Positions 21,401 through 56,710 of a stretch of DNA of 64,000 nt are shown here, piece by piece. Below the pieces are notes generated by a model, which was not told the origin of the DNA, made no database searches, and saw nothing but the letters and a program-made list of their open reading frames with translations. The stretch comes from Diadema setosum. Lineage: Eukaryota. The stretch is taken from contig NC_092698.1 in the NCBI RefSeq assembly GCF_964275005.1, positions 37,744,597 through 37,808,596 of the forward strand, given 5' to 3'. Position numbers and translations under genes: made by a program. Numbering within the stretch: position 1 is the stretch's first letter; each line of letters begins with the position of its first letter.

Positions 21401-22822
21401 TGATCCTACAGTTACATACATAATAAAATGCATGTTTGGAAACTGAATGCAGATGTTATTTAAAGACATGGCTGATAGTACAGACAGTGTCTCCAATTTC
21501 AAAAACCAACTACAATATATGCACCTTAGTAAACACAGGCTGATATGCTACCAGTTTGACATCCCATCTTGTCTGTGTACAAATTTAAATATCTTTCATA
21601 AAACTTATCCTTATCAAAGCTGCAATAACGAGTCTTACAAGATCCCATGTCCTGTTATAAGCAAATACATATGATCCAAAGACTAGGAAGATATTATTGT
21701 TAATCTGATGATTTTTTTTTTTTTCAATCTTGATTAACAAAGGTATGCAGCAAGCATAACAAACTTTTCAAATACATGAAATCTTGCATATCTGTTATAC
21801 AGATATCATATCTCAAGCTTTCAACGTCTATCTATTTTTATAAAACATTTTGGATTCGAGAGTAGCTCCCATTTTTGTATTTGCCTGGTAATTATCTGAA
21901 GAATGGGAGGGAGTGTGGAGGGGAATGTATAAATGTATTCATGTTTATTTTGATGACTCATGAATTACTACATTGCTCTGGTCCTTTTTTTTTTTCTCCT
22001 CCATGACGAATGCAAATAGTGCTGTGGAATAACACAAACAAACACGCCTACAACAAAATGTGAGAAATATTGCGCAATCTTGTAAAGGTGAGTAGCATAA
22101 TCTGTAGCATTACTCTGCATTTAAACTTCATAAACATCAGTGGTTTACTCTTTAGATGTACACTATTGTAACTGTACAGTCTAGAATGAACAATAAAAGA
22201 TGCCGAAAAACTATGATATGACTTTAAAGCATGTTCCCAGTATTACTTTTGTTTTTATTGGGAGAGGGGTCTACATGTACTTACTGTAAGTTCCTTGGTT
22301 GCATTGTTCTAATCCTTGTTTTTTATTAAAAACTAATCACAGATATCTTCACATCAAAACAAGTAATTACAATGAAATACATTTGTACCCTGCCTTGTTT
22401 TGTTGTGTGTTTGTATTAGCAGTTGAATTGATATATCAATAACACTGTATAACATTCTGTGTCAAATAAAACAGAATGGATTACTCTGCTTGACTCAAAT
22501 ATCTTACTTTGAACTTTGAACATGGCTGATACCAGCAAAAACAGACAGTCAGAGACAACAATCTAAATTTTTATGATTACATTAACAGCAAACTATCACA
22601 AACATGATGTCGACAAAAAAAAAAAAACAAAAAAAAACAAACACACACATAAAAACAGGAGACCACAATTCTTGGGCAAACACAATCTCAAAAGGTCTGT
22701 TTGCAATGTGAGATAACCGATCAACTAGAAATATGTCAGGCCTACATGTCTGGCAAATTGCATGTTCTGACACATATCATTCTTATCAATACATTTTCCC
22801 TATAGAGCAACTTAGGGGGGGG

Positions 22823-23075
22823 GGGGGGGTTGCTGTGGCATATTAAGACTCCTGACTCCCAATCCAAGGACCCGAGTTTCGAATCCTGTCCAGTGCTTAC
22901 AGTCTTCGAAGTGGACAAGATGCTTTTTCCTACCATGTCCCCCTCGACCCAGGTGTATGAAATGGGTACCTGGCAACGTTAGGGTATACTAATGGCAGGG
23001 CTTTCTGGTAGAGCAGTGGCAACACTAGAGAGGCTACCCTGGGTAAATAAGACCTTATTATTATCATTATCAAAT
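22823..23075 (+). mobile_element. tRNA-derived SINE, family 1. It has a tRNA-like head (gtggcatattaagac...gacccgagtttcgaatcc), a body, and a (TTA)n-like tail.
   Basis: The head shows A-box and B-box-like motifs. The body and tail (ccctgggtaaataagaccttattattatc) match the reverse complement of 62950-63300. Confidence 0.55.
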
Positions 23076-25714: not shown

Positions 25715-25830
25715 ATGTGTGCGCGAGCGAGGGTGTGGGAGGGGTTTTTCCCCCTTGTGGCCTCCCACGGTAGGGAGCTTTTTCAATTTTTAGCTCTTAA
25801 TGGTGCGATCAGGTGCATACTTAAGAGACT
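25715..25830 (+). repeat. Solo partial copy of the roughly 270-bp unit found in the 59.5-61.7 kb tandem array (gagcgagggtgtgggaggggtttttcccccttgtggcctcccacgg...).
   Basis: Similar by eye to the array unit; includes the gggagggg..cccctccc palindromic core. Confidence 0.4.
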
Positions 25831-34913: not shown

Positions 34914-35884
34914 CAAGAATTGTTTAAGCTCTAACAACATAACTACGTATAAGGTCTACAGGACAATAAAGGCCATCATTTATTGATACGTGAGATATAG
35001 ATATAGGCCTATGATAGATGTCAGGTTTTCTGTTTGTTGATTTATTTGTCCAACGGCAGCAGCAGAATTAAATGAATTTACAAAGAAAATGCGTCGAGCA
35101 ATGATTCATTATCAATGAAATAGCAATAGCAGTTAATTATTTTCTCCCAGCGAAAGTAAATGCAAAACCTTGGTTAAGAATTAAAAAAAAAAATGTACAA
35201 TTACGGATTATCATACACAGCGATCCGTTACGACAAGAAATGTTTCACATTTTGAGTTTGCTATTACCGCATCTCAAGGCTATATCATATTTATTATCGC
35301 AGGGAAGATGGGAACTCTAAAAATTATACTCCAGTATTATGTGATTACGAAATCTAACTATACAATGACCATGACTTGTATACATGATAAAACAGACTTG
35401 TATAGTGCTTGGTGTGCAATGGCAATCATGAAAATATCACCAAGAGGTGGCGCTGTATTACTATTCTACATGAGCATGATGAGAAGCATGCTACGATACC
35501 AGCTTACTTTTCTTTATCGCATTGCCAACTTTACAGGTACTGGATTGTCATGAACATCTGTAGGTCTCAAGTACACAGTCAATGTAACTGAAATAGAAAT
35601 CGCATTATGAAATACAATTACAATATATTTTGTTTTCTCTAGATAGCAAATCGAAGCAAAATTTGTCTCTTGCAGGGGCCGCGGAACCGGGGGGGGGGGG
35701 GGGGTGGCTGGGGGCTGCAGCCCCCCCCCCCCCCACACACACACACAGACACACACTTTTGTCTCGTGAAAAAAAAAAAAAGAAAGAAAGAAAAAAAAAA
35801 AGGGGGAAAAATCGGGGAAAAAATTTTAACACCCATGAATTTGAATTTCCAAAGATTTCGCCCTTACATAAAGTTCCCGTTCAA

Positions 35885-35894
35885 GCACCGGCGT

Positions 35895-35928
<34 letters not shown>

Positions 35929-37296
35929 TAAAAGGGGGGGGGGGGGGGCGATGGGGGCGGTCGCCCCGGGCCCTTAAGATTCTGAATAATTCTGAGTGCA
36001 CAAGACTTATCACTTACATTCCGAAAAATCAATAGTTTCCTTATGTACAAGGGGAATATCCCCTTTTAATCAACCCTTTCCTCTCTAAGTTCCCACGATC
36101 ATTTTTTTTTATAATTTCCCAAATATTCCATGAAATACATGTGTATGCGTATACGAGATATCTGAATTTCAGCTTTAAATAGGCTAAAGCTCCCTCGTAC
36201 GGGAATGGTGGGGATAGCACTCTCCCACGCTTTCTCCCTGTTCCCCCCCCCCCCCACCGCCCTGTGCATACAAGGTAGTAGACTATACATACACTTTGAG
36301 TTTTGAAAATAAAACTATATGCCACAAAATGTGTGCACCAAAACGTTTAACTGCAATCAGAAAATACAGAATCTCCTTCATGTAGGAGGGGTAATAGGGC
36401 TTATCCCCTCCCACATCCTCCTGCTATGTCTTCTTCCACAGACTTGCTACACTTCTCTGATTGACAAATTTCCAACAAAAGTGTGAGCCAGATCGTTGAA
36501 TTTCATGCAGTTCTAAAAATGAAAAAGCTCCCTCGAAAATGGGAGACGTATCTTGCCACCATCCCATTAACAAGGTCCACTCTATAGACTTAGTACACTT
36601 TGGGTAATGACAATTTCCGAATTTCCCACAAAAAGTGTGCTTCAGATCGCTTTATTTCAATTCTAACAACGCAAAAGCTCCTCCCCCTCTACCTCATTAG
36701 ACTTTGTACATACACACAGATGATGCACACGCGGAATAAGAACTAAATGCCGTGATATTGCCATACGATTGCTGTTAACACTTTCCTGAAAAAACCTAAT
36801 TTCATTTCCATTATTCTTTTTTTTGGGGGGGGGGGGGGGAGGGGAGCTAGAAAAAATTCCAAGTATTGCACCCAAAGTTTGCACCAGATCGCTGATTTCA
36901 GGTCTGAAAATGTAAAATCACATTCGTGTGGGAGGAGAAATATCCCTTATGTACACCCTCGTGTGCATGCCTTTTCTGTTTGATTGCTTAACAGACAGCG
37001 TTCATGAAATTCATTGTAAGAATTAATAAAAGAAGTTTATTTAAATGGTACCACTTTATAGGCAAATTGTTCTATAATAATCCAAGTGGGCTGTTTCAAG
37101 TCGATAAAACACGCAAAAACATGCATCAAATTGCACCATTTACAACACCAAAAAGCAAAAAGTTCTCACCGTGGGAGGGGGGGGGGACACCCCCTCTCAC
37201 ACCCCCCCCCCCCTCGCTCGCTCCGCTCGCTCGGGCTCGGTCGCTTCGCTCCCTCGCATAGTAACCCCCCAAGATCATATCCTGGTTACGCCGGTG
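35885..37296 (-). mobile_element. Copy A of a non-autonomous TIR element of 1412 bp, related to the 59545-62623 insertion but carrying only one internal 270-bp unit. It is flanked by a degenerate 8-bp TSD (cgttcaag and cgtgtaag).
   Basis: The ends are caccggcgtagc at 35885 and cctggttacgccggtg at 37281-37296; these are mutual reverse complements and match the TIRs of copy B. The internal sequence from 36990 to 37260 is the reverse complement of array unit 1 at 59580-59830. The segments 36880-36960 and 35930-36000 match the reverse complement of 61740-61830 and 62290-62620. Confidence 0.55.
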
Positions 37297-37610
37297 CGTG
37301 TAAGCGGGGGCGGGGGGGGGGGGGGGGGGGCCTTGACCTTGACTTGACACCCCCCGGTCCCGCAGCCCCCCCCCCCCCCTCCTACACTGAAAAACGTTCC
37401 GCGGCCCCTGTCTTGAAAGTGTAACTGTGTGTCCAATGTATCTGAAGTGTTTCATGATTTTAATCATAGTGACTTAATTTTCGCTGTGTGTGGGATGGGG
37501 TTGTTCGTGGTTGTTTGGATCTAGGGTCATTGTTATCTCCCCCCCCCCCCTTCCTTGGCGATAAAAATCTGGGGGCGGGGAAGTTATCTTTTCTTCTTTT
37601 TTCCACGTTT

Positions 37611-38389: not shown

Positions 38390-38453
38390 CGCCAACCAAT
38401 TATTGGTTGTATTTACTGACATAAATACTTAACGAAGCAAGCAATTCAAGAGT
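38390..38453 (+). promoter_or_regulatory. Putative core promoter of esterase gene 1. A palindromic double CCAAT element (ccaaccaattattggttg) sits about 50 bp upstream, and a TATA-like cataaatact about 25 bp upstream of the ATG.
   Basis: Motifs read from the sequence only; the transcription start site is unknown. Confidence 0.3.
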
Positions 38454-38858
38454 ATGCCTGCACTAAGAACTGTGATTCTCAGTGTATGCATCGCGCTGAG
38501 CCTAGTTACCAGCACGGATGCAGCCACTGCCGAGAAGATCGGTTCGCCAACTATCACTCTGCCATCTGGAGCAAATCTAACGGGCATCACGAGGCTGTAC
38601 AATGAATCAGACTTCCTCAATCTTACCAAGCCCATCGATTCCTATCTCGGCATCCCTTTCGCCGTGCCTCCAGTGGGCGATCTCCGCTTTGAAGACCCGC
38701 AGCCGTACACGATCATGGAGGACTACGACGCAACAGAACATCGGGCTATATGTCCCCAGATGAGCCCCGTCCGTCACGTACCGGTGGTGGGTCCCAAGGT
38801 GGGACGAGACGTATCAGAGGATTGCCTTTACCTGACCATTTACTCTCCGTCACCAAAG
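38454..38858 (+). CDS. Carboxylesterase type-B/cholinesterase-like gene 1, exon 1 (135 codons). It carries a signal peptide (MPALRTVILSVCIALSLVTSTDA) and the EDCLYLTIY motif.
   Basis: The ATG is at 38454. The donor is aag|gttaga at 38859, in phase 0. The homologous exon of gene 2 is also 405 nt. Confidence 0.85.
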
Positions 38859-39013
38859 GTTAGAAATAGTATTGTGCATCTATCTATGAATCTATGAATC
38901 TTCTTTCTTCAAAGTTACAGTAATTCCATGTGTTCTCTGCACAGGAACACTGCAATGTCGATTTAATCGGATCATAATCATGTAGGCAATTCAAAACATA
39001 AGCGTCATCTTCG

Positions 39014-39014
<1 letters not shown>

Positions 39015-39074
<60 letters not shown>
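39015..39074. repeat. (CA)30 microsatellite in intron 1 of gene 1.
   Basis: Read directly. Confidence 0.95.
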
Positions 39075-39077
<3 letters not shown>

Positions 39078-40097
39078 CTGCAAACTCTGTGTGCGTTGTT
39101 ATCATTGTTGAACATTTTTATAAGTTTCATGATAAAGTAATACCCAAGGAACTTTTTACCCGTTTCTGCACGCTTTCAAATCCCAAATGAAACTCATCTT
39201 TTGATTTGACAAGTTTTGTGACAATGTCTGATGATTCAAACTTTATCACATGCACTATATAAATCGAAGATTAGCTGAGGATTTTTGTACTTCTTGTGTT
39301 TGCAAGAATAGCCTGAAGTAAATCATTTTAAAGCATTTCAGAAACATCACCTTCTTAAGCTATCTTTTGATCGTAACGCCGCGGTGGTACACGGCGTGTT
39401 GCCTGCTGTACAAGTTATTCTATTGATTAATGAATTCTCTTATGTCTCACCAGATGCTTTAATAAAGATAAAAGAACAACAAAAATATAAAAAACAACAA
39501 AAACCCCAACAACAAAAAGCAAAACCCCAAACCAGCAACTCATAGCACAAAAAATACCCATAGACTGATAAACTCGCACATCGAGTTAATCTTCAATCAT
39601 TTTAATCTTTAATCATTTTAATCATAAACTATTTGTATAAACTCTTAAGTAATCTAATGGCTAATCATGTCGAAACATGCATACATGTAATGAAATAGAT
39701 GTATGAAATATTGAACGCAATTCAACGCATTTTTTCTTACTGTCGATTGGAGGATTATTCGTTTCTCCTCAGTTCTGTCATGACCACTCAATAAATCAAT
39801 TCCTCTATCTTTAACATACGTTTTTCTTCCCTTATAAACCTCAACCAATAATTACATTGACTGCGATAAACTGAGCAAAATTAAGTGTGCAGACTCTTAA
39901 AGGTTTACTTAATTCCAAAAAAGCGAAGAATTCTAAGATTTCACATGTGATCAACCACAAGCACTGCCCGAAAAAAAAAAAAGAAAGAGCACGAGTTTGA
40001 CAGCTGTGCGAGATGCGTATGAGTAAGCGTGAGATGTATGTTGGTTGAGTTTAGACTAACAATTTACTTGACGCATCTGTCGTCATCCCATTGATAG

Positions 40098-40260
40098 CCC
40101 ACCACACCCGTACCTGTCATGGTGTGGATCCACGGAGGGGGGTACGCCGTCGGTGCGGGATCGGGGATCATTTACCAACCCATCCCACTCGTCGCCATGT
40201 CCGACATCATCGTCGTCAACCTCAACTACCGACTCGGCGTCTTTGGCTTTCTGACCACAG
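40098..40260 (+). CDS. Gene 1 exon 2 (163 nt), encoding PVMVWIHGGGYAVGAG...NYRLGVFGFLTT(G). This is the oxyanion-hole region.
   Basis: The acceptor is ttgatag|CCC. The exon ends in phase 1 at a probable GC donor (CAG|gcaagc), at the exact position where the paralogue has CAG|gtactt. Confidence 0.75.
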
Positions 40261-40395
40261 GCAAGCACACATTATGCACTACATGGCAAGGGAGTGGAAT
40301 GAAAATGTGTCGATTATTTAGAAATATGATTTCTTGGTGTTGATTCTATTTAAAAAAAAAAAAAATCTCGTACAAAATTAATGTATACAATGATT

Positions 40396-40752
40396 TGGCT
40401 CAGTCGGGAGCTCGTCACGACTCCCAATCTAAATGACCCGGGTTCGATTCCCAAGTCTAATTGGAAAATGTTATAGTTGTGTGTAATCATACCGTACTCT
40501 CTATAGTGAGAGGCAAAACACTCTGTCCCTCGGATAGGACGATAGAATGGAGGTCCCGTAAGTGAAAGAGCCACAACTAATGCAGGTAAAAGATCCCGCT
40601 TCATTCATCCATCGAAAAGAGCAGGGTGCATCACCCGGTGAAGTGGTCCGTCTCACGAACTTGACCCTATGGAAGACAACCTACAGTGCAGCTGAATATG
40701 GACTATCCAGCCATCTTCTCAGATGAAAATGAAACAAACAAACAAACATTTG
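40396..40752 (+). mobile_element. tRNA-derived SINE, family 2, in intron 2 of gene 1. The head is tggctcagtcgg...gggttcgattccc, with a perfect B box, and the tail is (CAAA)n.
   Basis: It has an A-box-like TGGCTCAGTCGG and a B box GGTTCGATTCC, and ends in gaaacaaacaaacaaac. Its 3' end recurs as a reverse-complement copy at 58215-58306. Confidence 0.6.
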
Positions 40753-40852
40753 CCACTGACATGTCAGACGAATACGTAGAACTCTGATAACGATACGACA
40801 TTTGGACACAGTGTTTCTTGTATAGCGTCATATTTGCTTCTTTATCATACAG

Positions 40853-40930
40853 GAGATGACGTTGTGACTGGCAACCAGGGAATGATGGATCAAGTTTTGG
40901 GTCTGAAGTGGGTTCGTGACAATATCGCAG
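40853..40930 (+). CDS. Gene 1 exon 3 (78 nt), encoding GDDVVTGNQGMMDQVLGLKWVRDNIA.
   Basis: The acceptor is catacag|GA and the donor is gcag|gtgagc at 40931. It is phase 1 to phase 1. The paralogue exon is also 78 nt. Confidence 0.85.
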
Positions 40931-41642
40931 GTGAGCGTTTTCAGTGTTGTTCTTGCTCAATATTGGCTCTTTGAAGGAAGTTTAAATCTGTGTTGCTTTA
41001 TAAGGACGAGAAGGTAAAGATTTAAGTGTCTTGTGTTCGACCTACGGCAAGAAGGCCACTTCTTCTAACTCGTCGATGCGCCAGAAAACCTTCGGTCCTG
41101 AATCGGCGTCTTTCGGCTATTAAACCTTCTCGACCTTAACAAGACGCTAAGGTGAAATTCAATACCGAGTACTGTATTCTTCTCATTCCACGTTTAAGAT
41201 TCCGTAATCGGTATTCCTTCAATCTAGGTGGAATAGACCTGAGAGCAACAAATAACTATACATGTATGTTTACAGACCGATAAAGGTATGTCAAGGCACG
41301 CAGAAAGAGGCATGACTTTTTAGGTGTCTCCCTATTCATTCATGTTCATAAAATTTCTCCTCTTTAGCGAGATTTCTCCAACAAATCGTCAATTGAATTC
41401 AAATTAAATTCACTCTCCATTTTTTGTTTCAAATTTTCATTATATTTCTTTATCTTATTTCGTCAACAGCTTTTTTTTTAATGTTTTAAAATAAGAGAAA
41501 AGATAAAGGACCAAAACATTCCAGACGAATTCTTCACGACAAATTACGAACAAAGTTCCATAGAAGGATCATTCAGTCATAAAAGAGAGAGAGAGAGAGA
41601 AAAAAGCCTTCTATCTGGGAGGAAAATTGTGTAACACTGTAA

Positions 41643-41813
<171 letters not shown>

Positions 41814-42248
41814 TGAAAACCACTTGGAATGTAGCCGTTTGGATGCCAGTGACATGGGGTTACAAGCTGTGCAGGGAAGAGAACCTCCCGCGTGAATATT
41901 TGTCATGGTTGGCTTTGAATTCCTCCAGCCTTCCAACAATATCTAAGGAACTCTAGCTGAAACTAAGTACTTCTGAATAGGGACACCATGGTATAGCAAC
42001 AAGCACGTAGTGTAATTTGTATTGTTTTTACATACACCATTCTGATTCGGCAAAGAAATGAGTAAATGAATCAATTATTCACTTCAACTTAGTCACACCA
42101 TCACTGATTATATGTGTGACAATGTAGTTGATACATCTTCTCTTTTCTCTTTTCTCTCAATTGAATGAATGTCAAATAACTTTCTGATAACTTTCGAATC
42201 CATGACATTTTATTTTTCTCCCGACCTGGACCCCCTTCTCCATGGTAG

Positions 42249-42413
42249 AGCGGCAACGCCATTTGTCCATGGGCGTGGTCAACCAATGAGGGCGCCACCG
42301 CAGCACATCGAGAGCTGGCGGTACAGGTGGGGTGCGACCAAACAGACAGTTCGGCAATGGTGGAGTGTCTACGTGGCGTGGATATGGACACTTTGATAAG
42401 AGAGCAGATCTTG
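42249..42413 (+). CDS. Gene 1 exon 5 (165 nt), encoding SGNAICPWAWSTNEGATAAHRELAVQVGCDQTD...REQIL.
   Basis: The acceptor is ccatggtag|AGC and the donor is ttg|gtaaga. It is phase 0 to phase 0. The paralogue exon is also 165 nt. Confidence 0.8.
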
Positions 42414-42835
42414 GTAAGAAATCGCTATGGGAACTAATATACAAATTTATTATGAATTCTAATTTCGCTGTTCCTTCTGTTTTCTGTATACACACTCAGA
42501 TACCTACAAATTACAATACTGTATATAATTAACTACACCACTTCCCTGACTACGCTACGAATGCTCATAGGCATTAGTAAAACGTCAATTACAAACATTC
42601 CTCAAAGGGGCCTCGTCAATGCCACTGCACACACAAATACACACAAATACTCACTAGCAAAACTCTAATACCAACATTGTATGTCTGTACTATACACACT
42701 GCATCTTTCATTCGCTATGTTTATTTTCATAAGTGCTGATGAGATGTGCTTCGGATCGTTTCACTCTCTTTCACCCCCTGCTCCATTTTCTAACTCTTTC
42801 TCTCTCACCCTTTCCCTGTTTTTAATTGTGATCAG

Positions 42836-43449
42836 ATGGGAAACGGTGCCTTGTCAGCCCCGGTGGTAGACGGAGACTTCCTACCCTACAACCCGGTGGA
42901 CATGGCGCGACGAGGTCAGTTCCAGGTGGTTCCAACCCTCATAGGAACGAATGAAGACGAGATGTCCAGTGCTGCTATGGCCGTCTTTCCTGGGTCAATA
43001 CTCGATGACCAACCTCCAGTCATGAACATCTCGCTTTTCCGAAGTCTGATTCCCGGTATGGTGTACTACACTCATGCGCCTATTGAGATCGCAGCCGTGG
43101 AGCAGCACTACGTCGACTGGACGGTGGCAGATGACCTCTCAGCTGACCAACTGGACAGCTACATACGACTTGGTACGGATCAGACATTCTCATGTCCTAC
43201 CGAATTCTTTGCGCGGGCTTTAGAAGCGTATGGCACCGAAATTTACCGCTATGAGATGACGCATGACCCGAACTGGTCCGTCTACGCAGGAATTCCGAAG
43301 TGGTTGGGGGCCACCCACGCCGAGGATCTGCAATACGTCTTCGCTTGGGCGCTAAACCCTTGGCTGGAATTCCTCGTCAACCAGACAAACGATGAAAAGT
43401 TCATGTCGATCGAGTTTATGCGATATTGGTCGAACTTCGTAAAATCCGG
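42836..43449 (+). CDS. Gene 1 exon 6 (614 nt). It carries GTNEDEMS (catalytic Glu) and GATHAEDLQYVF (catalytic His).
   Basis: The acceptor is tgatcag|ATG and the donor is tccgg|gtaagc, in phase 2. It matches ORF 42836..43453. Confidence 0.88.
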
Positions 43450-43574
43450 GTAAGCAATGAATACAGTTCAAAATAAAAACAAACAAACAAGCAAAACAAA
43501 CAAACAAGCAAATCAAACAAAACACGACAATCACCACAACCGTGGTGGAAGTTTTCATTACTCGAGTTAGCAGA

Positions 43575-43735
43575 ATCGGATCGTTATCTCCAAGGTTTAA
43601 TCCGAAAATGAAATGAAGTTCGTTATTCCTAAAATAAAAAAAGGTTCGTTATTTCTAAGGTTTGTTATTCCAAAAGGTCGTTAATCCGAAGATGAAAAAA
43701 GTACTTAATTCCGAAGGTTCGTTAGAATGCATCTT
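43575..43735. repeat. Minisatellite of about 6 units with motif (A)AGGTTCGTTATTCCGAA, period about 25-30 bp, in intron 6 of gene 1. A related array lies at 49700-49850 in intron 1 of gene 2.
   Basis: Motif recurrence read by eye at both sites. Confidence 0.6.
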
Positions 43736-44845
43736 TTTTCTTACTTAACCTTCTTACATTAATGTATACATGCGTACGCCACAGTAAATTGTTCATAAAA
43801 ATGAATACATTAATGAGTAATTGTTCAATCTGTGTCTGTTACTTTTAAATATCTCAAATGACAGAAGTCACTAAAGTCAAAGGTAAATTTAAGTGTTAAA
43901 GGTATAAATCTACCATTTGCAGATGAAGCAAAAACCCAGCTTTAGTGCTTCAAAATAGTTCTGAAATTTGAGTTAGGGATAGAAACAACCAAAGTAAAAA
44001 TTTGAATCAGTATAATTAATGACGTGTTAAAGGTAGGGAATCCCATTTGCATGCCTTAAATGAAGAGTTGTATAAATACAGTAGTATGTTGAAGAGAGTA
44101 TCATTTTAGAAACTCCCATAAAGTATTGAAAGTGGAAGGTAACATTTAGTACATTTTTATTGACCGTTAGATTTTGAATTGAATATTTTTCGGGGCTCAC
44201 CGTAAATTCCAGTACATTACTAGGCTACCTTTGCAGACCCATGCACTGCATGTGTGTCCATCATGTATATTTTGTGAAGAAAGTTCATCAAAACTTACAA
44301 ACATTTCTATATACATTCTTGCCACACACTCTATATGTTATTACATCAGATCTTATACTTTTAGGTTTGTGTTTATAGATAAAAAAATACAGAAGACTGC
44401 AACAAAAAGGCTTAAGTGTGGCTGACACACAGAACTACTGAGTAGTTGAGTTTTGTGCATTATTCAAATTGTAGATAACTGTTGACTTTCAAATTTCTCA
44501 GCAGTGGCCTAAACAAGTCCCCTGAGGTTCATATTTAATGTTTTGCTGCATTTTGGGAGGTCTGTAAAAGGTATCCCCTACCTTTAAGTGTTGTTAAATA
44601 TACAAAATGTGAACAACAGTTATTATTGAAATGTTTCTAGATCAAACCGTCTACAGTTATGGCTTATTGAGAAAAATATATTGATGTCTCCTTATATTTT
44701 AGGCTTTATTGCAAAATTTTCACATGGTAGAATGTTTTGTGATACAACTGACCTACACATATGTATCGAATGTGATATTTCGAACAATTTTAAATCACTG
44801 CCCCCAAAGGTAATCTGTACCTTTAATGCCTTATAATGCAATCAG

Positions 44846-45015
44846 GAACCCCAACGAACCGGCAGAAAACCAAGCCTACCCGGACTGGCCACAGTACACT
44901 TTGCCTGGTCAGGATTACAAGAAACTTTCACTCGACATGGACAACGATCGGGCAATGCGGGCGTCATCATGTGCTTTCTGGCTCAGGTATATGCCGGGGC
45001 TACACACCGAAGCAG
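44846..45015 (+). CDS. Gene 1 exon 7 (170 nt), encoding NPNEPAENQAYPDWPQYTLPGQDYKKLSLDMDNDRAMRASSCAFWLRYMPGLHTEAG.
   Basis: The acceptor is caatcag|G and the donor is gcag|gtatag. It is phase 2 to phase 1. Confidence 0.85.
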
Positions 45016-45353
45016 GTATAGGATACGTCTTTCGTCAACACCCCTTCACTGTCTCAGAATGATGCCAATAGCACCCTAGACTGTGTCCAAGATACTTGAT
45101 CATTATGACACTTGTGATATTTGGAAGTATGAGATGCCTGCAATCTTGCCATCTATCTAAGATTGCTTAAAATGTTTAATTGTTTCGTCTCATCTATGCA
45201 CTGAACTACTATAATTGAGACTAAATCTATCCACAAATTAATATCTCGTGAAATCTTCCGATACAATTGTGCGGCTGAACATTATGATTTGTTCTGAGAT
45301 GTTCAACTGCCCTTATAAACCTATTCATGTTCATATGGACATTTTTATTTCAG

Positions 45354-45487
45354 CTCCAATTGAGGACGTGTACGAGCAATGGCAGGAGGACTATGCGAAC
45401 TGGCGTGACATAGACATGCCTAGCTGGTCTACAGAGTTCGAGGAATACAAGGCTAACAACCCTACTTGTCCCACAGCAACGCCGTGA
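45354..45487 (+). CDS. Gene 1 exon 8 (terminal), encoding APIEDVYEQWQEDYANWRDIDMPSWSTEFEEYKANNPTCPTATP followed by a stop. This is a Trp-heptad plus Cys tail (T-peptide/WAT-like).
   Basis: The acceptor is ttatttcag|CT. The TGA stop is at 45485-45487. The total CDS is 1848 nt, or 615 aa. Confidence 0.8.
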
Positions 45488-46809
45488 TAATTCTCCACAA
45501 TTCTTTTTCTCATTTTGTTTCTCTCTTTTTTAATGTTGATCAAACTCTTCCATGATTTAATGACGCAGTCGAAGGTTGTGATAAACAAATTTCAATTTAA
45601 TATGAGCGCGTTTAGGAAGCTGTTTTAGGTTGACGCACATACGTATGGTATACGCTTCCACCGAACATTTAATTTTCAAAGGGCAGCATAAAAGCAAAAG
45701 TTAATCTATCGACAATAAACAGAAAGACACAGTCCTACATCATTGTTGAATCTACTTGTCAAGCTAAGTAGAATAATGGTAGAGTAAGTTATCCGTTGCC
45801 ACTATGTTCCTCCACACGAAGACAAAAAGTTTCTCTTCATTGTGCATGCTTCATCCAACCACATGGAGGAGTTGAGGTGGACTTGCAGGACCTGCTAGAG
45901 GGAATATTGTCTAATATCCTAAGATCTAAGCTTCTAATTTATCACGATTCAATTTTGTCAAAGTTGTGTACGACAGTATCTTACGCAGAGATACAGACAA
46001 ATCTGTTTACACCCACTTCGCCGAAGATGTTTGTTCGGTTGTTTGTTTGTTTTTGTTTTATACCCCACCACTCTTTTTATCCCTGAAAATATTGCTATTG
46101 AATGACATGTATAAATACCTAGTGGGGATTTTTATGCATTTATGTAAGAATTTTATATTACCAAAAATTCTTTTGGACTTTTTCACATACAATAATCAAA
46201 TTCATAATTACAATACGCGAACCGCGAGTGATTTTCACCTATAATACCTTTATCTCGTACATCTTTTTATCAACGATCTATTCTTTACAGTGGTCCTATT
46301 CTGTGGAATTCTCTCCCCTTTGAAATACGCAATGCTAACTCTTTGAATATATTTAAATCTGGTTATAAAAAAAAATTTCTTCAATAATTACAACCAAATT
46401 CATTTAAGTTAAGAGTATCAGTTTTTATCCTTTATGTTTTGAGACATCAGGTGTTTTGCTATTGTCATTGTGTGTTGATTGTTATGTCTTAGTCTTGTCT
46501 TGTTCTTATGTTTTACTTGCTTCGAACACATTGGTAACAGAAATTTAACGAATGTTTTTAGGTCAGCAGAAAATAAGGGACATTTCCTTTCTGGCTGCTG
46601 CCTACCATAGCAATTCCTTTACACTGTTTAACTGATATTTTTGTAATTGTATTCTAATGTTGTTGTATGTGTTTGTTTGTTTAGATATCTTCTTTGCTTG
46701 GTGAAATAAAGAAACTTGAAACTTGAAACTTATTCTTAGTTTGCGCGAATAAAAGTTTTTTCTGATCATGATAATCATGTGAGACATATTACATGAAAAG
46801 CAACACTGT

Positions 46810-48650: not shown

Positions 48651-49231
48651 GTTCGAAGATTTTTGCTCTTCAAACTCAAGTCGCCTCCTTTCAGGAATTG
48701 TGAAGTTCATCTTTAGCTGTTGTTTTTTATGATGATGTTGCTGTTGTAATTGTTTTTGCTTTAGAGCAATGGTTGTTAATAACTATGGGTAATCTCAGTG
48801 CGAAGTTTTGATACAGTTTAGTGTTTACTTTATATACAAAGATGAAATAATGGCAAGAGTGTTTTCTTTGCTCACACGGTTGATTCTGATATATGATATA
48901 AACCTAAAAAATGTCTGCGCCCGTATCTCTAACAGCTGAAGAGGTTGTACATGTCATGCGAGATATGAGGTAATATCAGCTGAAGATAAGTAAAAAAAAA
49001 AAAAATGCCCTTTAAACAGAGTCAAGAGGCTGAACACGATCTTCGAACTCTAGGCGAGCAGACTTCTAACCGTATTGTCATCTACCACTATTTTATGTCG
49101 AACTATCAACACTGGTAGGTTAAGTTCAGTCAGTATTTCTGCACCAAATTTACGCATTCCGGTATTTTTTAGCAATCGTTTATTAGAGCTACTTCTTAGA
49201 ACGAAAATTTCACGAAGTACTGTTCAGGAGT

Positions 49232-49636
49232 ATGCCTTCACTAAGAATTTGGATTCTCAGCGCTTGCGCTGCCCTGAGTCTAATTACTGGCACGGAGGCA
49301 GCTTCCGCCGAACCGATTGGCGCGCCAACTGTCGCCCTCCCATCTGGAGCAACACTAACGGGCATCACGAGGCTGTACAATGAATCTGGCTTCCTCAATC
49401 TTAACAAGCCCATCGACTCCTATCTCGGCATCCCTTTCGCCTGGCCTCCAGTAGGCGATCGCCGGTTTAAAGACCCAGAGGAATACACGATCACGGAGCA
49501 CTACAACGCAACAGAACATCAGGGCATATGTCCTCAGACGAGCCCCTTGGATGGTCTCCTCAATGGCAGTTTCGAGATCGGCAGGGATGTCGACGAGGAC
49601 TGCTTATATCTCAGTGTCTACACTCCGTCACCAAAG
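49232..49636 (+). CDS. Esterase gene 2 exon 1 (135 codons). It has a signal peptide (MPSLRIWILSACAALSLITGTEA) and is about 70% identical to gene 1 exon 1.
   Basis: The ATG is at 49232 and the donor is aag|gtagga at 49637. Confidence 0.8.
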
Positions 49637-50749
49637 GTAGGAAATCTACTGCGTAGATATCGCAACAATTTATTCATAATAAAGAAGTTGTAATGTAATT
49701 GGTTTGGTTACAGATCGTTATTCTGAAGGTTCGTCATTCCGAAGGTCTGTTAATCCGAAAATAAAAGAAGGTTATAACTGTTATTCAGAAGGCCCGCTTA
49801 TCCGTAAACGAAATAAGATCGTAATCTCTAAGGTTCGTTAGATGTCGTCTTTGCATTTTCGAACCAACAGACCTTATTTGATTTTCATTGATTTGAGAAT
49901 ACAAGCGTTCCACACTGTGGATCTTTTCATTACGTTACAAAAACCACCTCCCTGCAAAACCTGAAGCAGAAATATTCCTCTGATGCGTGTCTTAATTGGT
50001 GGTGAAAAAGTCATCTCTTCTTTCATAGTCGGATTTATCATTATGCACCATGCTGTTTATTTCATGGTCGACTTTATATGTGATTTATATATACATGGTA
50101 ATATTTGATATTAAACAAGCGAATATTATCGCATGCACATTATATTATGCAGACAACACGGTATATTTTTTTTTTCATAAATTGGTCCAACCTATATCTT
50201 GAAAGAGTTTACGAAGGACTGTGTTTTAGCAAACTGATATTGATCTGAAGAGGACAACGAGATTTTTGATTTGCTCAGTTTTTTGTTAGCAAAGTGGAAA
50301 CTACCTTTTGTATTAAGTTATGTGAAAAAACAGTCAAACATAAAGAGACTGTCAATTACATGGGAGTTACGCTTGATCAACAGTTGAAGTGGTAATGTTC
50401 GCGTCAATGCTATACTTTGGTCGATTCTTTGCACTGAAAGCAAAATACTGTTCAGTTTTTACTGTGCAAACCAAATTAGTCGATTCCAAATTATATTTAA
50501 TTCGAATGATATAATGAGCATCTGTAGTTTGTATTCGGGTGAATTTCATTAACACAAAAAATCTAACGTTTTGATTACGGGAATGGGACAATATGGGGGC
50601 ATGTTAGAAAATCTTTGCTCACTATTGTAATGTTTTTTCCTTAGAGGTTCGGAGATCGTTCTACTCATATTGAAATTAATGTTTTATAATAGTTGTGCCA
50701 TTTTTCATTAATTTCTGTGACTGGACCACTCGGCAGATCTGCTGTTTCA

Positions 50750-50998
50750 TTGTGTCTTTTATGTTTTGCGTCTATTGGTATTATGTTGTATTTATATCTG
50801 GTTGAATTTGTATTACCTTATTATACCATATGAAACAACAGAGCAAGATCTGTGCATAATTCATAAACAAAATTAGAAATACGACTGGATTGACGTCAAT
50901 CCAGTCGTATTTTTAATTTTGTTTATGAATTATGCACAAATTTAACCAGATACAAATACAACATAATACCAATAGACGCAAAAATATAAAAGACACAA
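50750..50998. repeat. Long, near-perfect palindrome (hairpin) centred on TGACGTCA at 50891-50898. The arms are about 104 and 145 bp, and the left arm has a 41-bp insert. It lies in intron 1 of gene 2.
   Basis: The left arm (gtgtcttttatgttttgcgtctattggtattatg...cgactggattgac) is the reverse complement of the right arm (gtcaatccagtcg...cataataccaatagacgcaaaaatataaaagacac). Confidence 0.7.
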
Positions 50999-51440
50999 CA
51001 TTTTGCCTTCCGTCCTGGCAGATTTATATATTGGAAAAATATGATTTGTGTATACATATACACTTGTATAAATAATATTTGATTTTGAGGGGGAAATGAA
51101 GATGTCTAACAGCTAAAAGCGATTTCTTAAATACGTTGTGATCCAATCCCTATAATACCTCTACGACTGTTACTTATTGAATTATGATTTTGATTCAAAA
51201 CTGCCGAAAAATTCAGAAATAGCTCATTGTTTAGTTGATTTACTTCTGTCCTCTGATTACAATTGTACTCAATGGATAACTGAGCAAGCATAACGTTATG
51301 AATACCTAATCAAATATTTATGTACACTGTATTTTAATAAGTGTGCGTGTGTAAGAGTAGGAGTGAGGGATGGGTGTATAGACATAACATTAACACGCAA
51401 AAGTTGGGAAAATGATATGATATTTCGTTTGTCATTTCAG

Positions 51441-51603
51441 CCAACTTCTCTCTTACCAGTCATGGTGTGGATTCACGGGGGTGGTTACAATGGTGGTGCA
51501 GGGTCGGCACCTTGGTATCAGCCCATGGTACTGGTGGCGTACTCCGATATTGTTGTTGTGAACCTCAATTACCGCCTTGGTGTCTTTGGGTTCTTGACTA
51601 CAG
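51441..51603 (+). CDS. Gene 2 exon 2 (163 nt), encoding PTSLLPVMVWIHGGGYNGGAGS...LGVFGFLTT(G).
   Basis: The acceptor is gtcatttcag|CC and the donor is acag|gtactt. The length and phase are the same as in gene 1. Confidence 0.82.
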
Positions 51604-52025
51604 GTACTTTATGTTCTATGTTGACGTCACATATAACAATAAATCATTTTATTCATGGTTATAGAACACTTACCTACCGCTGAGGGCTCAAGGCCATGTT
51701 TCACTAACATGGGAACTATGGAGTCGAACAATGAACCCAAAGTTGGGACAGGTTCAGATCAGATCCATATTGTTGGGAAGGATGCATAGACATTCAAGAT
51801 GTATTCTAGTGTGTGGTGTAAGGTGTGCGCAAGACTAACTTCTGAGGACTGCTTTATCCCAAAAAAGTCCCTAGGATCAGCTGAATTAAACTTAAGATTG
51901 GTTTTTAGAGCGAAGTGAAACAACCCCTGGTCTTAAGAGGGCATTGTCATTGATATCATTACCAAACCATTACGTTGATTTCAACATCTTGATTCAAAAA
52001 GACAAACAGAGAAAAAACAGAAACG

Positions 52026-53700
52026 ATGTACAAGGACAAGCGGGAGGATAGAACCCACGTTCTCTTGTTTAGTTCACAGTCTAGTCTTATATGTGGAAAA
52101 TCTAATGAAGTTTTTGATTATGTACAAAACGAAATTAGAGAAAAAATGCAGAACATCGACCGATTACTGGTCCGCCCGGAGTTCAAAGTTTCCATATATG
52201 TCCGGTATCTGTTACCTGCCATGAGATTTATGATGAGTGTCCATACACTGAATAAATCACATCTTGATGTATTAGACTCTATGACAGACGGCTACCTAAA
52301 ACAGTGGTTAGGAATCCCAAGTCGAGGGGGAAACATTGCAACCGTACATCTCCCGCAAGGGATGGCCATCCCGCGCTTTTCCGATATTTATTAGAAAGCC
52401 AATTGTTCAGCTTATACCAGATCAAGACTAGCTGGTGACGGCGTAGTTAACCACGCCCTAGACTCCACGCTGGAACGCGAGTCGAGGTGGACAACAAAGC
52501 AGTCCACTGTAACCGTCTGTCACAGTGTCCATGAGAAAGCCGTAAGTGAGCTTAGAGTACAGACCAATAGCTCCTGGAAGAAGACAATAAACAAAATACT
52601 AGAGGATGATGTTGTAAACTACTGGAAAGAAAAGATAGAGCCACTCCTTTGCCAAGGAAAATTTACAGAACTATTACTGCTCGAGAGAGAAAACCTCACA
52701 TGGAAATCCATTATGTTTAATCTCCCTCGAAATGTTTTAAAGTTTGCAGTTAACGCGTGTATTGATTCCCTACCCTCTTATTCAAACCTATCCCGTTGGG
52801 GAAAGAGACTAAGCAATAAGTGCTCCTTCTGTCCAAATACAACAGGGACCCTATACCACATTCTGTCACACTGTCCATCGATGTTAGAAAGGTATACTTG
52901 GCGACACAATAATGTTCTTAAGGTTATCCAGACCATTATAATTAGCACAGAATTTAAGAATTTCGATGTTTATTGTGACGTAGGGGGCCACAGGAGGCAC
53001 AGTATACCCCCGCACATCCTGGTAACTAACCAACGCCCAGATCTTGTTGTCGTATGGCACAATCCCAAACAGATTATGTTAGTAGAGTTAACAGTTCCTT
53101 CTGAGAGCAACATAAAAGACGCTCACAAAAGGAAGATAGAGAGGTACAAAGACCTGGTTCGAGATCTGAATGAAACCGATTACGACACCTCATTTGAAGC
53201 GATTGAGGTCGGACAAAGGGGATTCATTGATGCTGAAAACAAAACTCGAATAAAGCAAATCCTCGCCAAGTGTAATTGTAACAAGAAACCAAAGGAGCTG
53301 TACAATGACCTCAGCAAGGCTGCACTTCTAGCTTCTTTTGTCATATTTTACAGCAGACACGAACAAACATGGTCTGATGCACCGTATATGTCGGTATAAT
53401 CAGGTTTTGTATACAGTACCAAATCCCAATTCAATATGTTATCAGGATTAACATATTGCTGATATTATGGTATTGTTGAAAATGTTATGTGATAATATAT
53501 TGTATAGACAGGTAAATTATTTGAAGCTGAATTGTATGTTTGATGTATTGAAACGTTTTCTGACTGTGTGATATTATTATTTTTGGCAACATTAGTAGTA
53601 TTTGCACACACCTATGATGTTGGAAAGTCAAATCCGTCCAACACATGGTCAAATTCAAAAGTTGTATTGATACATAAATCTGGTGATTTAAGTTTGTTTG
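52026..53700 (+). mobile_element. 5'-truncated, decayed 3' portion of a non-LTR retrotransposon ORF2 in intron 2 of gene 2. It contains an RT-thumb-like region, a CCHC zinc finger and a PD-(D/E)XK restriction-like endonuclease domain, pointing to the R2/NeSL/CRE/HERO group. A 3' UTR follows.
   Basis: ORFs 52026..52394 and 52713..53399 share one frame and are separated by stop codons. The thumb-like region reads IYVRYLLPAMRFMMSVHTLNKSHLDVLDSMTDGYLKQWLGIPSRGGN. The zinc finger reads KCSFCPNTTGTLYHILSHCPSMLERYTWRHNNV. The endonuclease region reads RPDLVVVW...IMLVELTVPSESNIKDAHKRKIERY, giving the PD...E..K pattern. A roughly 110-bp duplicate of the 52085-52205 segment lies at 54320-54430. Confidence 0.6.
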
Positions 53701-55051
53701 AAATTTTTTTTTGATCGATTTCCCTCACATTTTGTATAAGTGAGATATTTCATTAAATTTTGGCAGATGAAATTATTCTGTGATGTGAAATGTATCTCAT
53801 TGCCTTTTTTTTTTCTTTGCTACAATTTACCCAGTTGCTTAGTAGATTCAGGGCACCCTCCTGGTAGATTACATCAATTGATTGTAGAGCATGCTTCAGA
53901 GATGTGTGTCAGGCCCTTTGTGGGAACATTTTTTTTTTTTTTTTTTTAGGCGACCATCCATCCCCAGTATATTACTTTATTGTTTTAACCCTCTCCTGGA
54001 ATATATATATATTTTTTTCAATGTAAACATGGTTATGACCTCAACGGACAAAATATTATTAATACCCTTTATGCAGACGATTAAACGTCATTACCAAAGT
54101 AAACAAAAAGTATATATAGATACACATTTCATCAGAATTCAACTCTCACTCTCAGTTCATGGGTTTATCTCTATAGTATGCAAAATGTTAAAGTTTGTTG
54201 ATTAGTATAGTATATGTGTAATATTTTATATTTGTATATGTGATATGGAATTAGATATACCGAAAGAAGGCTCATTACAATGTTTAGGACCACGGATATA
54301 TATTTTTTTTTTCAATGGGAAAGTAATGGAGTCTTCGATTTTATACAAAACGAAATCAGAAAATAAAAAAGCAGAACATTGACTGATTATTGGTCCGCCC
54401 GGAGTGTGAAGTTTCTATAAACGTCCGACATATATATATATATTTTAAAGAATTGTTATAAATGTTATAATGATTGTTGGTGTTAAATATTATTGTTGAT
54501 ACTGGCACATTAATCTCATGGATGTTATTTGTATTGTGCACTGTTCAATGTGTACCTGCAATTATCTAAAGAGATAATTGACCTGGTTATGTATAAACAT
54601 TTTTTTGAATAAAGAAATGATTCAATCAAAAAATACCAGTGATGCTAATTGTAGGAACATTCATTCTTACATTTCAATCTGATCAAATAAGTTTATAGAT
54701 GATAAATTTGTGTTCGTAAGGGTCTAATGCTTCTCTCTGAGTGACAGCGCCATCATGCTCCCGTTTATCATTGCAAATGCTATGACATTATTGTCTTCAT
54801 CATTGCGAGATCTCTGGTGATATTGACGAAAGCATTTTAGATCATGGTAAAGAACACTATTTGACAGTAAGTATTGTACGTTAATCATTCAATATTTTTT
54901 AGTTTACCAGCTGTACGACTTCTCCATTTTGTTCATGTGTGTAGATGCAACTTTAGAGTACTCGTAGAATGTATTTTAATGTAGGAAATAGTAATGATCG
55001 GAAGTAATTGAGTTCTCAGCACTATTATATGGCTGGTGGTATATCCAACAG

Positions 55052-55129
55052 GTGATGACGTCATGGCGGGGAACCAAGGAATGATGGACCAAGTGATGGG
55101 ATTGAAATGGGTTCAGGAAAACATCGAAG
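55052..55129 (+). CDS. Gene 2 exon 3 (78 nt), encoding GDDVMAGNQGMMDQVMGLKWVQENIE.
   Basis: The acceptor is caacag|GT and the donor is gaag|gtgatg. Confidence 0.82.
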
Positions 55130-55272
55130 GTGATGAGAACGACTATTCTTAATTTCTTAAAGGGATCATACAGTTTCGGTTGAGACCTAATTTCGGGTTT
55201 CTAACATTTTTGGTGAAATAATGAGAAACCTCTAATGAAATATGAAAGAGCATGTAATTCTATGAGGAATTC

Positions 55273-55418
55273 AACATTTATTTGATGAAAATTGGTTTTG
55301 AAATGGCTGAGATATCAAAAAAAAAAAAAGAGTGATTCTAATAAAGTGTGGGACCCACACTTTATTACGATTGCTTTGTTTTATTTTGTTTTTGGATGTT
55401 TCAGTCATTCCAAACCCG
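55273..55418. mobile_element. Small MITE-like element with about 28-bp TIRs (GATGAAAATTGGTTTTGAAATGGCTGAGAT at one end, gtttcagtcattccaaacccgattttcatc at the other), an internal poly-A and the palindrome tgtgggacccacac. A related solo end with flank is present at 19095-19210.
   Basis: The inverted repeat and the shared flank aaataaac(t/g)ttgaat...cttaaaat were seen at both loci. Boundaries are uncertain. Confidence 0.35.
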
Positions 55419-56172
55419 ATTTTCATCAAATAAACTTTGAATTCCTCTTAAAATGGTATGCTCTGTACTATATCATAAGTGTTTCTTTTTTTTTTTTTTG
55501 GTATCTCGCAAAAAGTTTAAAGCCCAATTCTCATCTCCACCAATAATGTACTATCCCTTTAATTTCCTAGCTTATTTTCCTCCCTGTTGGCTTAAAGGAA
55601 CTATCGAAATATAAATGAATGTTGACTTATGTTGGTTCATGATACGCTCAACATCAATTATGACGACTGTGACCAAATGAATATCTAAATTCGTGTCATA
55701 TATTTCATAATGATATTATACTATATATTTCTTCACAATGATATATGGCACATATTTCGATATTCTTTCGATTAGATGTTATAATTCAATACAAATCAAC
55801 ATGGATTTGCATTGTGTGGTCTGAAATAAAACGACTCTTTATTATATTGAATTTGATTTTATATGCTTATTGCTTCTATTAGCATTCAAAAATTCATCTT
55901 CAGGTACATCACTCATAATTATCATAGTTTTCTTCCGTGGTCACCCTGGCATTTTTAATCAATATTGATCCCCTTGCCATTATTGAATTTGATATCTTCG
56001 AGAAAATTAAAATTCAACTAAAAATTGAGTGGAATGATGGCATTGGCTCGATGATTGTAAAAAAATCTGACAGTTTAAATCATTCGATGATATCTTGGCT
56101 GTTCATTTTCCGTATTCACCGATGATCTTTCATGTTCATGTCCCGAATTTACGTATAACATGTGTAATATGA

Positions 56173-56523
<351 letters not shown>

Positions 56524-56710
56524 TAAAATCAAATCCCAACCTAAAAAGCATCTGTTCCTATATCACACTGAGGACTATTACTGCAATCTATATTGTTCGG
56601 AACAATTGAATTCTTTATCTCGTATGTTTTTTGTTGTTATTTGTTATTTGCCATTTTTTTTTTTCTGTTGCCATGTGTGAACATGCGTATATATCTCTCT
56701 TTTTCATTTT

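Follow-up and report, generated by a model that had tools for sequence, protein, structure and literature searches.

A non-coding family of inverted-repeat elements with tandemly amplified interiors in Diadema setosum, with one copy inserted in a carboxylesterase exon

In a stretch of 64,000 nucleotides of Diadema setosum DNA (NCBI RefSeq assembly GCF_964275005.1, contig NC_092698.1, positions 37,744,597 to 37,808,596 of the forward strand; hereafter the window, with positions counted from its first base), two repeated elements, copy A and copy B, have common ends and common internal segments and differ in the length of a tandem array, which comprises one unit in A and eight in B. Copy B splits one of the conserved coding exons of a carboxylesterase gene, and relatives with the same type of ends, target duplications and arrays of several unit types are found in other genomes. 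We regard it as very probable that A and B belong, as diverged copies, to a non-coding class II cut-and-paste family, which would be mobilised in trans and whose interior would have been duplicated in tandem around a GC-rich module. An initial annotation of the window had read them as non-autonomous elements with an expandable array, resembling a MITE (miniature inverted-repeat transposable element) of hAT type, and this interpretation is supported by the analysis reported here.

Shared ends and the exon insertion of copy B

The end pattern CACCGGCGTAGCCAGG, allowed up to three mismatches, has exactly four matches in the 64 kb (35886-35901 and 59545-59560 on the plus strand, 37281-37296 and 62609-62624 on the minus strand). 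All four coincide with predicted ends of A and B; 0.08 matches are expected in shuffled sequence, in which four were never attained. The common termini proposed for the two copies are thus confirmed, and their coordinates were right to within one base: A begins at 35886 instead of 35885, and B ends at 62624, or at 62623 when its last G is assigned to the target duplication. The features of the two copies are the following.

35886-37296, minus strand: copy A, 1411 bp, inverted relative to copy B, with one unit of the 275-bp type and seven hairpin modules (from the end-sequence scan, colinear blastn against the reverse complement of B, and the module profile)
35878-35885, unstranded: left target duplication of copy A (cgttcaag), compared with 37297-37304
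37297-37304, unstranded: right target duplication of copy A (cgtgtaag)
35886-35897, plus strand: end of A homologous to the right end of B, with only the outer 12 nt kept (CACCGGCGTAGC)
37281-37296, minus strand: end of A homologous to the left end of B (CACCGGCGTAACCAGG), from the end scan
36998-37244, minus strand: sole unit of copy A, 82-85% identical to the units of B
37209-37257, minus strand: 49-bp GC-rich subterminal block in A (GCGAGGGAGCGAAGCGACCGAGCCCGAGCGAGCGGAGCGAGCGAGGGGG)
59545-62624, plus strand: copy B, 3080 bp, within exon 7 of the second carboxylesterase gene
59545-59560, plus strand: left inverted end of B (CAACGGCGTAGCCAGG), from the end scan
62609-62624, minus strand: right inverted end of B (CACTGGCGTAGCCAGG), from the end scan
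59537-59544, unstranded: left target duplication of copy B (gcccgaac); the homologous stretch is present once in the empty-site paralogue
62624-62631, unstranded: right target duplication of copy B (gcccgaac), its first G being the last base of the 16-bp end
59589-59637, plus strand: 49-bp GC-rich subterminal block in B
59602-61704, plus strand: tandem array of B, eight units starting at 59602, 59873, 60132, 60406, 60580, 60865, 61140 and 61414
61740-62461, plus strand: non-array modules of B, diverged and oriented as in the array (profile matches at 61740-61835, 61921-62017, 62048-62137 and 62363-62461)
62574-62610, plus strand: right subterminal G-run/C-run palindrome (GGGGGGGCGACCGCCCCCATCGCCCCCCC), common to A (35941-35981) and all related MITEs
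44839-45004, plus strand: paralogous empty site, the intact exon 7 of carboxylesterase gene 1

Compared by blastn with the reverse complement of B, copy A is colinear from end to end at about 80% identity, with 74-88% in the single segments, and the similarity halts at the ends. The termini and the non-array segments are therefore shared, and not the unit alone, as had been claimed. The aligned segments are listed below.

A 57-97 with B 3066-3030: 88%
A 92-370 with B 2777-2486: 80%, E 3e-70
A 760-875 with B 2456-2313: 74%
A 977-1360 with B 2297-1870: 79%, E 7e-110
A 1114-1412 with B 330-1: 79%, E 1e-81

The copies also differ in module content, window positions 36256-36644 being specific to A and 62322-62573 to B. 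Because of this difference, a global MAFFT alignment of A with collapsed B runs out of register in its right half, and colinearity was taken from the blastn segments.

With a GC content of about 40%, the window is eukaryotic sequence that contains introns, microsatellites and a weak fragment of the long interspersed nuclear element (LINE) type (zf-RVT). It holds two tandem carboxylesterase paralogues (Pfam PF00135) with colinear exons, gene 1 at 38445-45004 and gene 2 at 49223-62725, whose closest matches are metagenome proteins in ENA at 55-65% identity. For an empty-site search, both flanks of B were joined and matched against the window. The joined flanks align with 44839-45004 straight through the junction (81% over 173 bp, E 3e-45). 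Removal of B together with one (g)cccgaac copy from gene 2 yields an open exon beginning NPNEPVENPAYPDWPQYTMPEQEYKKLSLDMDNGRAMRASSCTFW (in full NPNEPVENPAYPDWPQYTMPEQEYKKLSLDMDNGRAMRASSCTFWIRFMPGLHIQAG), which is colinear with the paralogue's exon, beginning NPNEPAENQAYPDWPQYTLPGQDYKKLSLDMDNDRAMRASSCAFW; with the restored exon the Pfam COesterase match reaches profile position 515 of 515, as against 472 without it. Because the empty paralogue aligns through the junction and excision reopens the exon, copy B is an insertion into conserved coding exon 7 of gene 2. The exon now consists of 59473-59544 and 62625-62735, and the break lies about 24 residues before the end of the COesterase domain.

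These results leave next to no probability for the view that A and B are immobile remnants of a tandem duplication behind the two carboxylesterase genes. The copies do adjoin two tandem paralogues; however, their orientations are opposite and their positions non-equivalent (A lies 1 kb upstream of gene 1, B in exon 7 of gene 2), the counterpart of that exon in gene 1 carries no insertion, similarity ends at the inverted ends, and the element is found with target duplications at unrelated loci of another genome.

The insertion could also be harmless to gene 2, if B were spliced out as a new intron in the manner of an introner and the gene still worked. The remaining homologous exon blocks of gene 2 are all still open. 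When all donor/acceptor pairs were listed, a frame-preserving pair was found, GGC/GTAGCC in the left end with TCTTAG/G at 62581, that leaves a stop-free insert of 19 codons, and a GC donor at 59550 pairs with AACAG/GAG. Introners are recognised by exact removal of the element plus one copy of the duplication and by many sense copies in genes; here, no canonical GT-AG or GC-AG pair cuts out exactly the element and one duplication copy, and a single exonic copy is known. Further, none of the candidate donors is strong, roughly one random pair in three keeps the frame, and the short MITE consensus has no terminal AG. The read-through frame holds three element-encoded codons and then a stop in the left end (...TMPEPTA, stop). 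We therefore consider such splicing very unlikely, and an insertion that breaks the exon the better reading.

Copy A has a less tidy setting. Its flanks, cgttcaag and cgtgtaag, agree at 6 of 8 positions as first described (chance 0.004), and an A29-rich insertion at 35898-35933 lies directly inside its 12-nt end. The copy sits nested in a further element.

35673-37410, unstranded: host element around copy A, about 326 bp, with perfect 15-bp inverted ends CAGGGGCCGCGGAAC at 35673-35687 and 37396-37410

This host (35673-35885 plus 37297-37410) carries G-run/C-run palindromes and has tcttg on either side, an apparent duplication of 5 bp and not of 8 bp. It probably represents a sister family, because its ends resemble CATAGGCGTAGGAAC and CACTGGCGTAGGAAC in two of the contigs described below (L008 and L018, respectively). 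Neither further copies of the host element nor an empty site for A were found in the 64-kb window or the fetched loci.

Hairpin modules and the array of copy B

Both copies are strings of one module of about 100 bp, repeated in a single orientation, in which a G-rich run is followed by the hairpin GGGAGGGG-loop-CCCCTCCC and this by TTTTGCATTTTGA...GGTGCA. The module count comes from a profile built on the hairpin region, which finds eight modules in the array of B and four to its right. Homology to a weak module of A (36064-35997) suggests a weak fifth non-array module in B, at about 62215-62290. The initial annotation attributed the difference between the copies mainly to minisatellite expansion. 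The interior does not, however, consist simply of a minisatellite and unique segments: it is a series of diverged hairpin modules, of which the newest has been amplified. Rfam and tRNA scans of the window gave no match, so the modules are neither a known RNA nor a short interspersed element (SINE) derived from a tRNA.

In the array, the palindrome GTGGGAGGGGGG-NNN-CCCCCCTCCCAC is perfect in six of the eight units; unit 7 shows a single mismatch in it and unit 6 a degenerate version, and the one in the single unit of A is imperfect, so that its description as perfect in each unit was slightly overstated. Its arms measure 12 bp and its loop 3 nt, and folded as DNA it reaches -15.7 kcal/mol, with z-scores between -4 and -5. 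In the older modules the palindrome has been lost, and their folding z-scores are only -0.2 to -1.7; therefore, the young 275-bp array overlies an older, decayed round of the same duplication process. In addition, every array unit of B holds a canonical G-quadruplex motif of four G-runs (59633-61476), directly 5' of the hairpin, into whose G-rich arm it extends. Together with two further motifs at 62197-62224 and 62365-62385, copy B accounts for 10 of the 21 plus-strand G-quadruplex motifs of the window.

Homopolymer runs of G or C of at least 10 nt number 23 in the 64 kb, which gives the impression of being unusually many. Examples are 5319-5349 (G31), 3721-3738, 16778-16796, 22815-22829 and 37312-37330. 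Twelve of the 23 lie in A, B or the host element and the others are scattered; they could be a trait of the genome and its MITEs, or partly an artefact of sequencing or assembly.

The repeat structure of the array was delimited in two ways. Tandem Repeats Finder (TRF) divides it into 59602-60580 (period 274, 3.7 copies) and 60580-61704 (period 285, 4.0 copies), and manual delimitation gives eight units of 259-291 bp (about 275 bp), of which unit 4 is shortened to 174 bp. The numbers originally given, about eight units in B and one in A, are thus upheld. The units of B are 88-98% identical to one another. Divergence is greatest in units 1 and 8, at the edges, unit 1 is nearest to the unit of A, and two pairs are nearly identical (units 2 and 5 at 98.4%, units 3 and 4 at 98.3%). 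This pattern fits what would usually be the signature of unequal exchange, partly by blocks of several units. The units begin within the 49-bp block and hold no end-like sequence.

A single module is also found apart from both copies.

25723-25827, plus strand: orphan hairpin module, about 100 bp, about 73-77% identical to the hairpin module of the unit

It had been taken for a solo fragment of the array unit. Its presence is confirmed; it is a module of about 100 bp and not a full unit, and a search for inverted ends around it found none.

Relatives in other assemblies and superfamily placement

Gene callers had predicted spurious open reading frames (ORFs) on copies of the element, and relatives were found by translating its stop-free frames and using them as protein queries. 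The first translated search returned one element-derived ORF, and a profile of eight element-derived peptides returned 70 pseudo-ORFs, all in ENA assemblies. Twelve contigs were inspected, three reached through carboxylesterase or pseudo-ORF matches and nine through profile matches.

One assembly (ENA ERZ26222911) contains five short MITEs of 337-380 bp that are 91-94% mutually identical and end in CAGTGGCGTAGCCAGG and CAGGCGCGTAGCC(A/G)GG; the family end sequence may alternatively be written CAGTGGCGTAG. Each has the 49-bp block, in full or internally deleted (it is intact in L013), one hairpin module and a right-hand palindrome as in B. A sister family in contig L016 (L016a) has the same 12-nt terminus as the MITEs. 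The duplications at these complete short elements are as follows.

L011: cattcaga on both sides, perfect
L013: gtatcccc on both sides, perfect
L014: accaacat on both sides, perfect
L016a (sister family): ttcatgtc on both sides, perfect
L010: tgcaagga and ttcaagga, 7 of 8
L015: aaactact and gaactact, 7 of 8

An 8-bp duplication is therefore present in six out of six complete short relatives (four perfect, two at 7 of 8), and a match of at least 7 of 8 has a chance of 4e-4 per element. Consistent duplications in copies elsewhere, on which the first reading depended, were thus found. In all ENA copies, the 16-bp end next to the module starts with CAGTG and the other with CAGGC.

Long forms occur as well. 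L016b (L016 11730-13887) is a long B-like element whose left 165 bp are 88% and right 51 bp 94% identical to B, and whose interior consists of 4-6 tandem units of another repeat, of 284 bp, each opening with the end-like 16-mer CAGTGGTGCAGCCAGG. Its right end is without the terminal G. In a Tara Oceans contig (L017; ERR599312, PRJEB4352), tandem units of about 236 bp contain the type of module found to the right in B (82% over 116 bp). A third assembly (L018; ERZ25072999, a contig of 1.18 Mb) has the hairpin beside an end reading CACTGGCGTAGGAAC. Unit number thus varies among the relatives (L016b, L017). Since a metagenome of marine plankton and a third assembly both contain them, the superfamily of hairpin module and ends is spread over several marine organisms. 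The three unit lengths (275, 284 and 236 bp) show that arrays formed around one GC-rich hairpin module at least three times independently.

Five elements from two genomes (A, B, L008 10277-10325, L013 1601-1649 and L016 13793-13841) have the 49-bp (GAGCGA)-rich block in identical form, although the sequence around it is 80-90% identical; at 80% identity, an unbroken match of this length would be expected about 0.016 times. The block is internally deleted in L010 and L011. The block is a candidate subterminal region for transposase binding, or alternatively for a hotspot of gene conversion.

Other searches for the unit and the ends added no copies. An exact-pattern scan of JGI metagenome contigs and GTDB genomes with a unit-specific 22-mer gave no match. 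A 27-mer of the GC-rich block matched five bacterial contigs (L003-L007; 66-71% GC, one labelled Acidimicrobiia), which share 33-37 bp with that block at 92-97% identity and have nothing else in common; these matches were rejected as low-complexity coincidence. A search of literature text for the end sequence, with Dfam and Repbase outside its scope, found unrelated primer coincidences only.

With respect to coding content, the Pfam scan covered 19 of the 31 long ORFs of the window and returned the carboxylesterase exons, a zf-RVT match of 25.2 bits (cutoff 27.5) and one sub-threshold chance match. As initially reported, no transposase was present among these ORFs. Within A and B no ORF had a Pfam match, the only overlapping long ORF scanned being 62342-62713 and the others being low-complexity read-throughs. 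Genes called in the fetched loci likewise carried no hAT Pfam flag.

The ends of hAT elements are short terminal inverted repeats of about 10-25 bp beginning 5'-YARNG, and their targets follow nTnnnnAn (Ac-type) or nnnTAnnn (Buster-type). Compared with YARNG, CAGTG fits, and CAGGC, CACCG, CAACG and CACTG deviate at position 3 or 5. Several observations weigh against an expandable hAT family. In the window copies, the ends begin with CACCG, CAACG and CACTG in place of the hAT-typical CAGTG. Neither the window nor about 190 kb of related contigs yielded a hAT transposase or an autonomous partner. Neither target consensus is recognisable in eight duplications (cattcaga, gtatcccc, accaacat, ttcatgtc, ttcaagga, gaactact, gcccgaac and cgttcaag), a weak test at n = 8. 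The duplication of B is ambiguous, at 7-9 bp: it has 7 bp (cccgaac) if both 16-bp ends are whole and 8 bp (gcccgaac) if the last G belongs to the target, and nine bases (tgcccgaac) are identical on the two sides when the final two bases of the right end are counted in; it is compatible with 8 bp. L016b is flanked (11712-11729 and 13888-13905) by a direct repeat of 16-17 bp, (t)tcagacgtcgtgataa, and not of 8 bp; together with its incomplete right end, this may reflect an abnormal event of transposition or repair. Lastly, the array of B may have grown either at its present locus or in a donor copy before insertion.

Some of these points would also suit another cut-and-paste superfamily with duplications of 7-9 bp, such as P, Merlin, Mutator-like, Novosib or Zisupton: no transposase was found, the window ends depart from YARNG at position 3, the targets show no hAT-type consensus and the duplication of B could have 7 or 9 bp. 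Against this, all six complete short relatives have duplications of exactly 8 bp, the ends of relatives start with CAGTG, inverted ends of 16 bp are characteristic of hAT, and among superfamilies with 8-bp duplications hAT is the most frequent by a wide margin, a rule on which the classification of MITEs as hAT is based in standard practice (PMC7385995). A different superfamily thus appears rather unlikely, and the 8-bp duplication and CAGTG ends point to hAT.

The term MITE, in turn, suits the 337-380 bp relatives, which are shorter than about 800 bp, non-coding and bounded by inverted ends and duplications, with many similar copies. Copies A (1411 bp) and B (3080 bp) exceed MITE size and are better termed long non-autonomous derivatives. 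In the first description of the window copies as a hAT-like MITE, the hAT part is based on the duplication length and on the CAGTG ends of the better-preserved relatives, and the MITE part does not suit their size.

A rolling-circle origin was considered with reference to the pearl/DTC84/DINE-1 group, now viewed as non-autonomous Helentrons. The layout is similar: cassettes with short inverted repeats flank a central array of up to several units, each unit has its palindrome, and simple sequence adjoins the array (PMC3879986). However, Helentron-like elements have subterminal inverted repeats and insert at AA/TT sites without true duplication, whereas here the repeats are terminal, six relatives have true 8-bp duplications of unrelated sequence and there is no sequence similarity. 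Membership in that group is extremely improbable.

The cut-and-paste scenario that we favour would proceed as follows. A transposase encoded elsewhere would act on the 16-bp inverted ends (family consensus CAGTGGCGTAGCCAGG), probably recognising the conserved GC-rich subterminal sequences too, and would make a staggered 8-bp cut at the target, which is the hAT pattern. The basic form would be the MITE of 337-380 bp, consisting of the left end, the 49-bp (GAGCGA)-rich block, one GC-rich hairpin module, a body of about 150 bp, the G/C palindrome and the right end. Its interior would be dispensable for transposition and free to change. The hairpin module and adjoining sequence may have been duplicated in tandem many times, leaving the old, decayed module series of A and B. 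In the lineage of B, a young array of eight units of about 275 bp may then have grown through unequal exchange or replication slippage, partly by multi-unit blocks, and formation of the hairpin or the G-quadruplex may have favoured this growth.

Two other accounts of the arrays were weighed. B's array might stem from tandem insertion of whole elements or from unequal exchange between them. In L016b each 284-bp unit opens with a copy of the end, CAGTGGTGCAGCCAGG, so that whole left ends were multiplied, and tandem arrays of a hAT MITE have been reported in cod (PMC12368964). The units of B, however, are free of end-like sequence and only its two outer ends match the end pattern, which makes this origin decidedly unlikely for B and leaves internal tandem duplication as the preferred process. 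A bolder proposal is that the GC-rich module near the left end, with its (GAGCGA)n block, G-quadruplex motif and 12-bp-stem hairpin, is a built-in array generator; we hold this to be conceivable but doubtful. If a structure-forming module, or a transposase acting on internal end-like copies, did drive the arrays, the family would offer a natural example of a transposon that gives rise to minisatellites or satellites again and again, and one such copy would have knocked out, or been spliced from, a carboxylesterase gene.

Known systems, neighbouring features and significance

The combination of traits had been called uncommon, which is not the case: there is ample documentation of MITEs with expandable internal tandem repeats, in some of which every unit has a palindrome (PMC3879986, PMC9659126). 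Among hAT MITEs, BniHAT-1 and BniHAT-2 of Brassica, Mar of Drosophila and the MITE derived from gadMor-hAT-1784 in cod are also non-coding and have terminal inverted repeats of 12-25 bp, 8-bp duplications and many copies (PMC7385995, PMC12368964), and the cod family forms tandem arrays too (PMC12368964). The present family differs from them in its GC-rich ends with G-run/C-run palindromes, most MITEs being AT-rich, in the length of its window copies (1.4 and 3.1 kb) and in having no known autonomous hAT partner.

Flanking cassettes around a variable central array, of up to about five units, are likewise found in DTC84 of the clam Donax trunculus, in pearl CvA, CvE and CvG of oysters, and in SGM, mini-me, PERI and DINE-1 of Drosophila (PMC3879986). 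In DTC84, each unit contains a palindrome that has been proposed as a hotspot of changes in array length, and all sequenced copies differ (PMC3879986). The DTC84/pearl/DINE-1 elements, with subterminal inverted repeats and an AA 'duplication', are placed with Helitron/Helentron-like elements, in contrast to the terminal repeats and true 8-bp duplications seen here, and no sequence is shared.

Tandem repeats that were born inside a cut-and-paste MITE and then expanded are also known from Xenopus, namely miDNA4 in X. tropicalis and Xmix/Xstir in X. laevis (PMC9659126). miDNA4 is listed as a Tc1-mariner MITE and not as hAT, and the Xenopus arrays escaped into genome-scale satellites, of which there is no evidence in the present family. 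Satellites derived from MITEs have been described in ants and rye as well (PMC9659126). In Drosophila, the class II elements Galileo (P superfamily) and Tetris (foldback) have internal tandem repeats that vary in number by unequal exchange (PMC4168063, PMC4079207); those repeats lie within very long inverted ends, whereas the ends of the present family have 16 bp and its array occupies one side of the interior.

Two further observations concern the carboxylesterase genes. A 139-bp block lies 3' of both (45350-45488 and 63448-63586) and is 96% identical between them, compared with 72-93% for the exons. It has no open frame in either copy, and could be a conserved piece of untranslated region (UTR) or regulatory sequence, a product of recent gene conversion or a young repeat. 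At 52026-53399, within an intron of gene 2, there are two ORFs, of 122 and 228 aa, the second with the weak zf-RVT match. This is only probably a LINE fragment, because that match falls below the Pfam cutoff.

For annotation, the results supply a repeat family defined by its ends, its 8-bp duplication, a short MITE form and long array-bearing forms; without such a definition, a gene finder or repeat masker would split the element into a 'satellite' and unrelated fragments. Carboxylesterase gene 2 is broken in a conserved C-terminal exon, and its annotation as intact needs RNA evidence. General knowledge of transposons or satellites is unchanged by the result. The family provides one more clean case, empty-site control included, of array growth inside a cut-and-paste element, and adds the observation that one structure-prone module was amplified several times independently.

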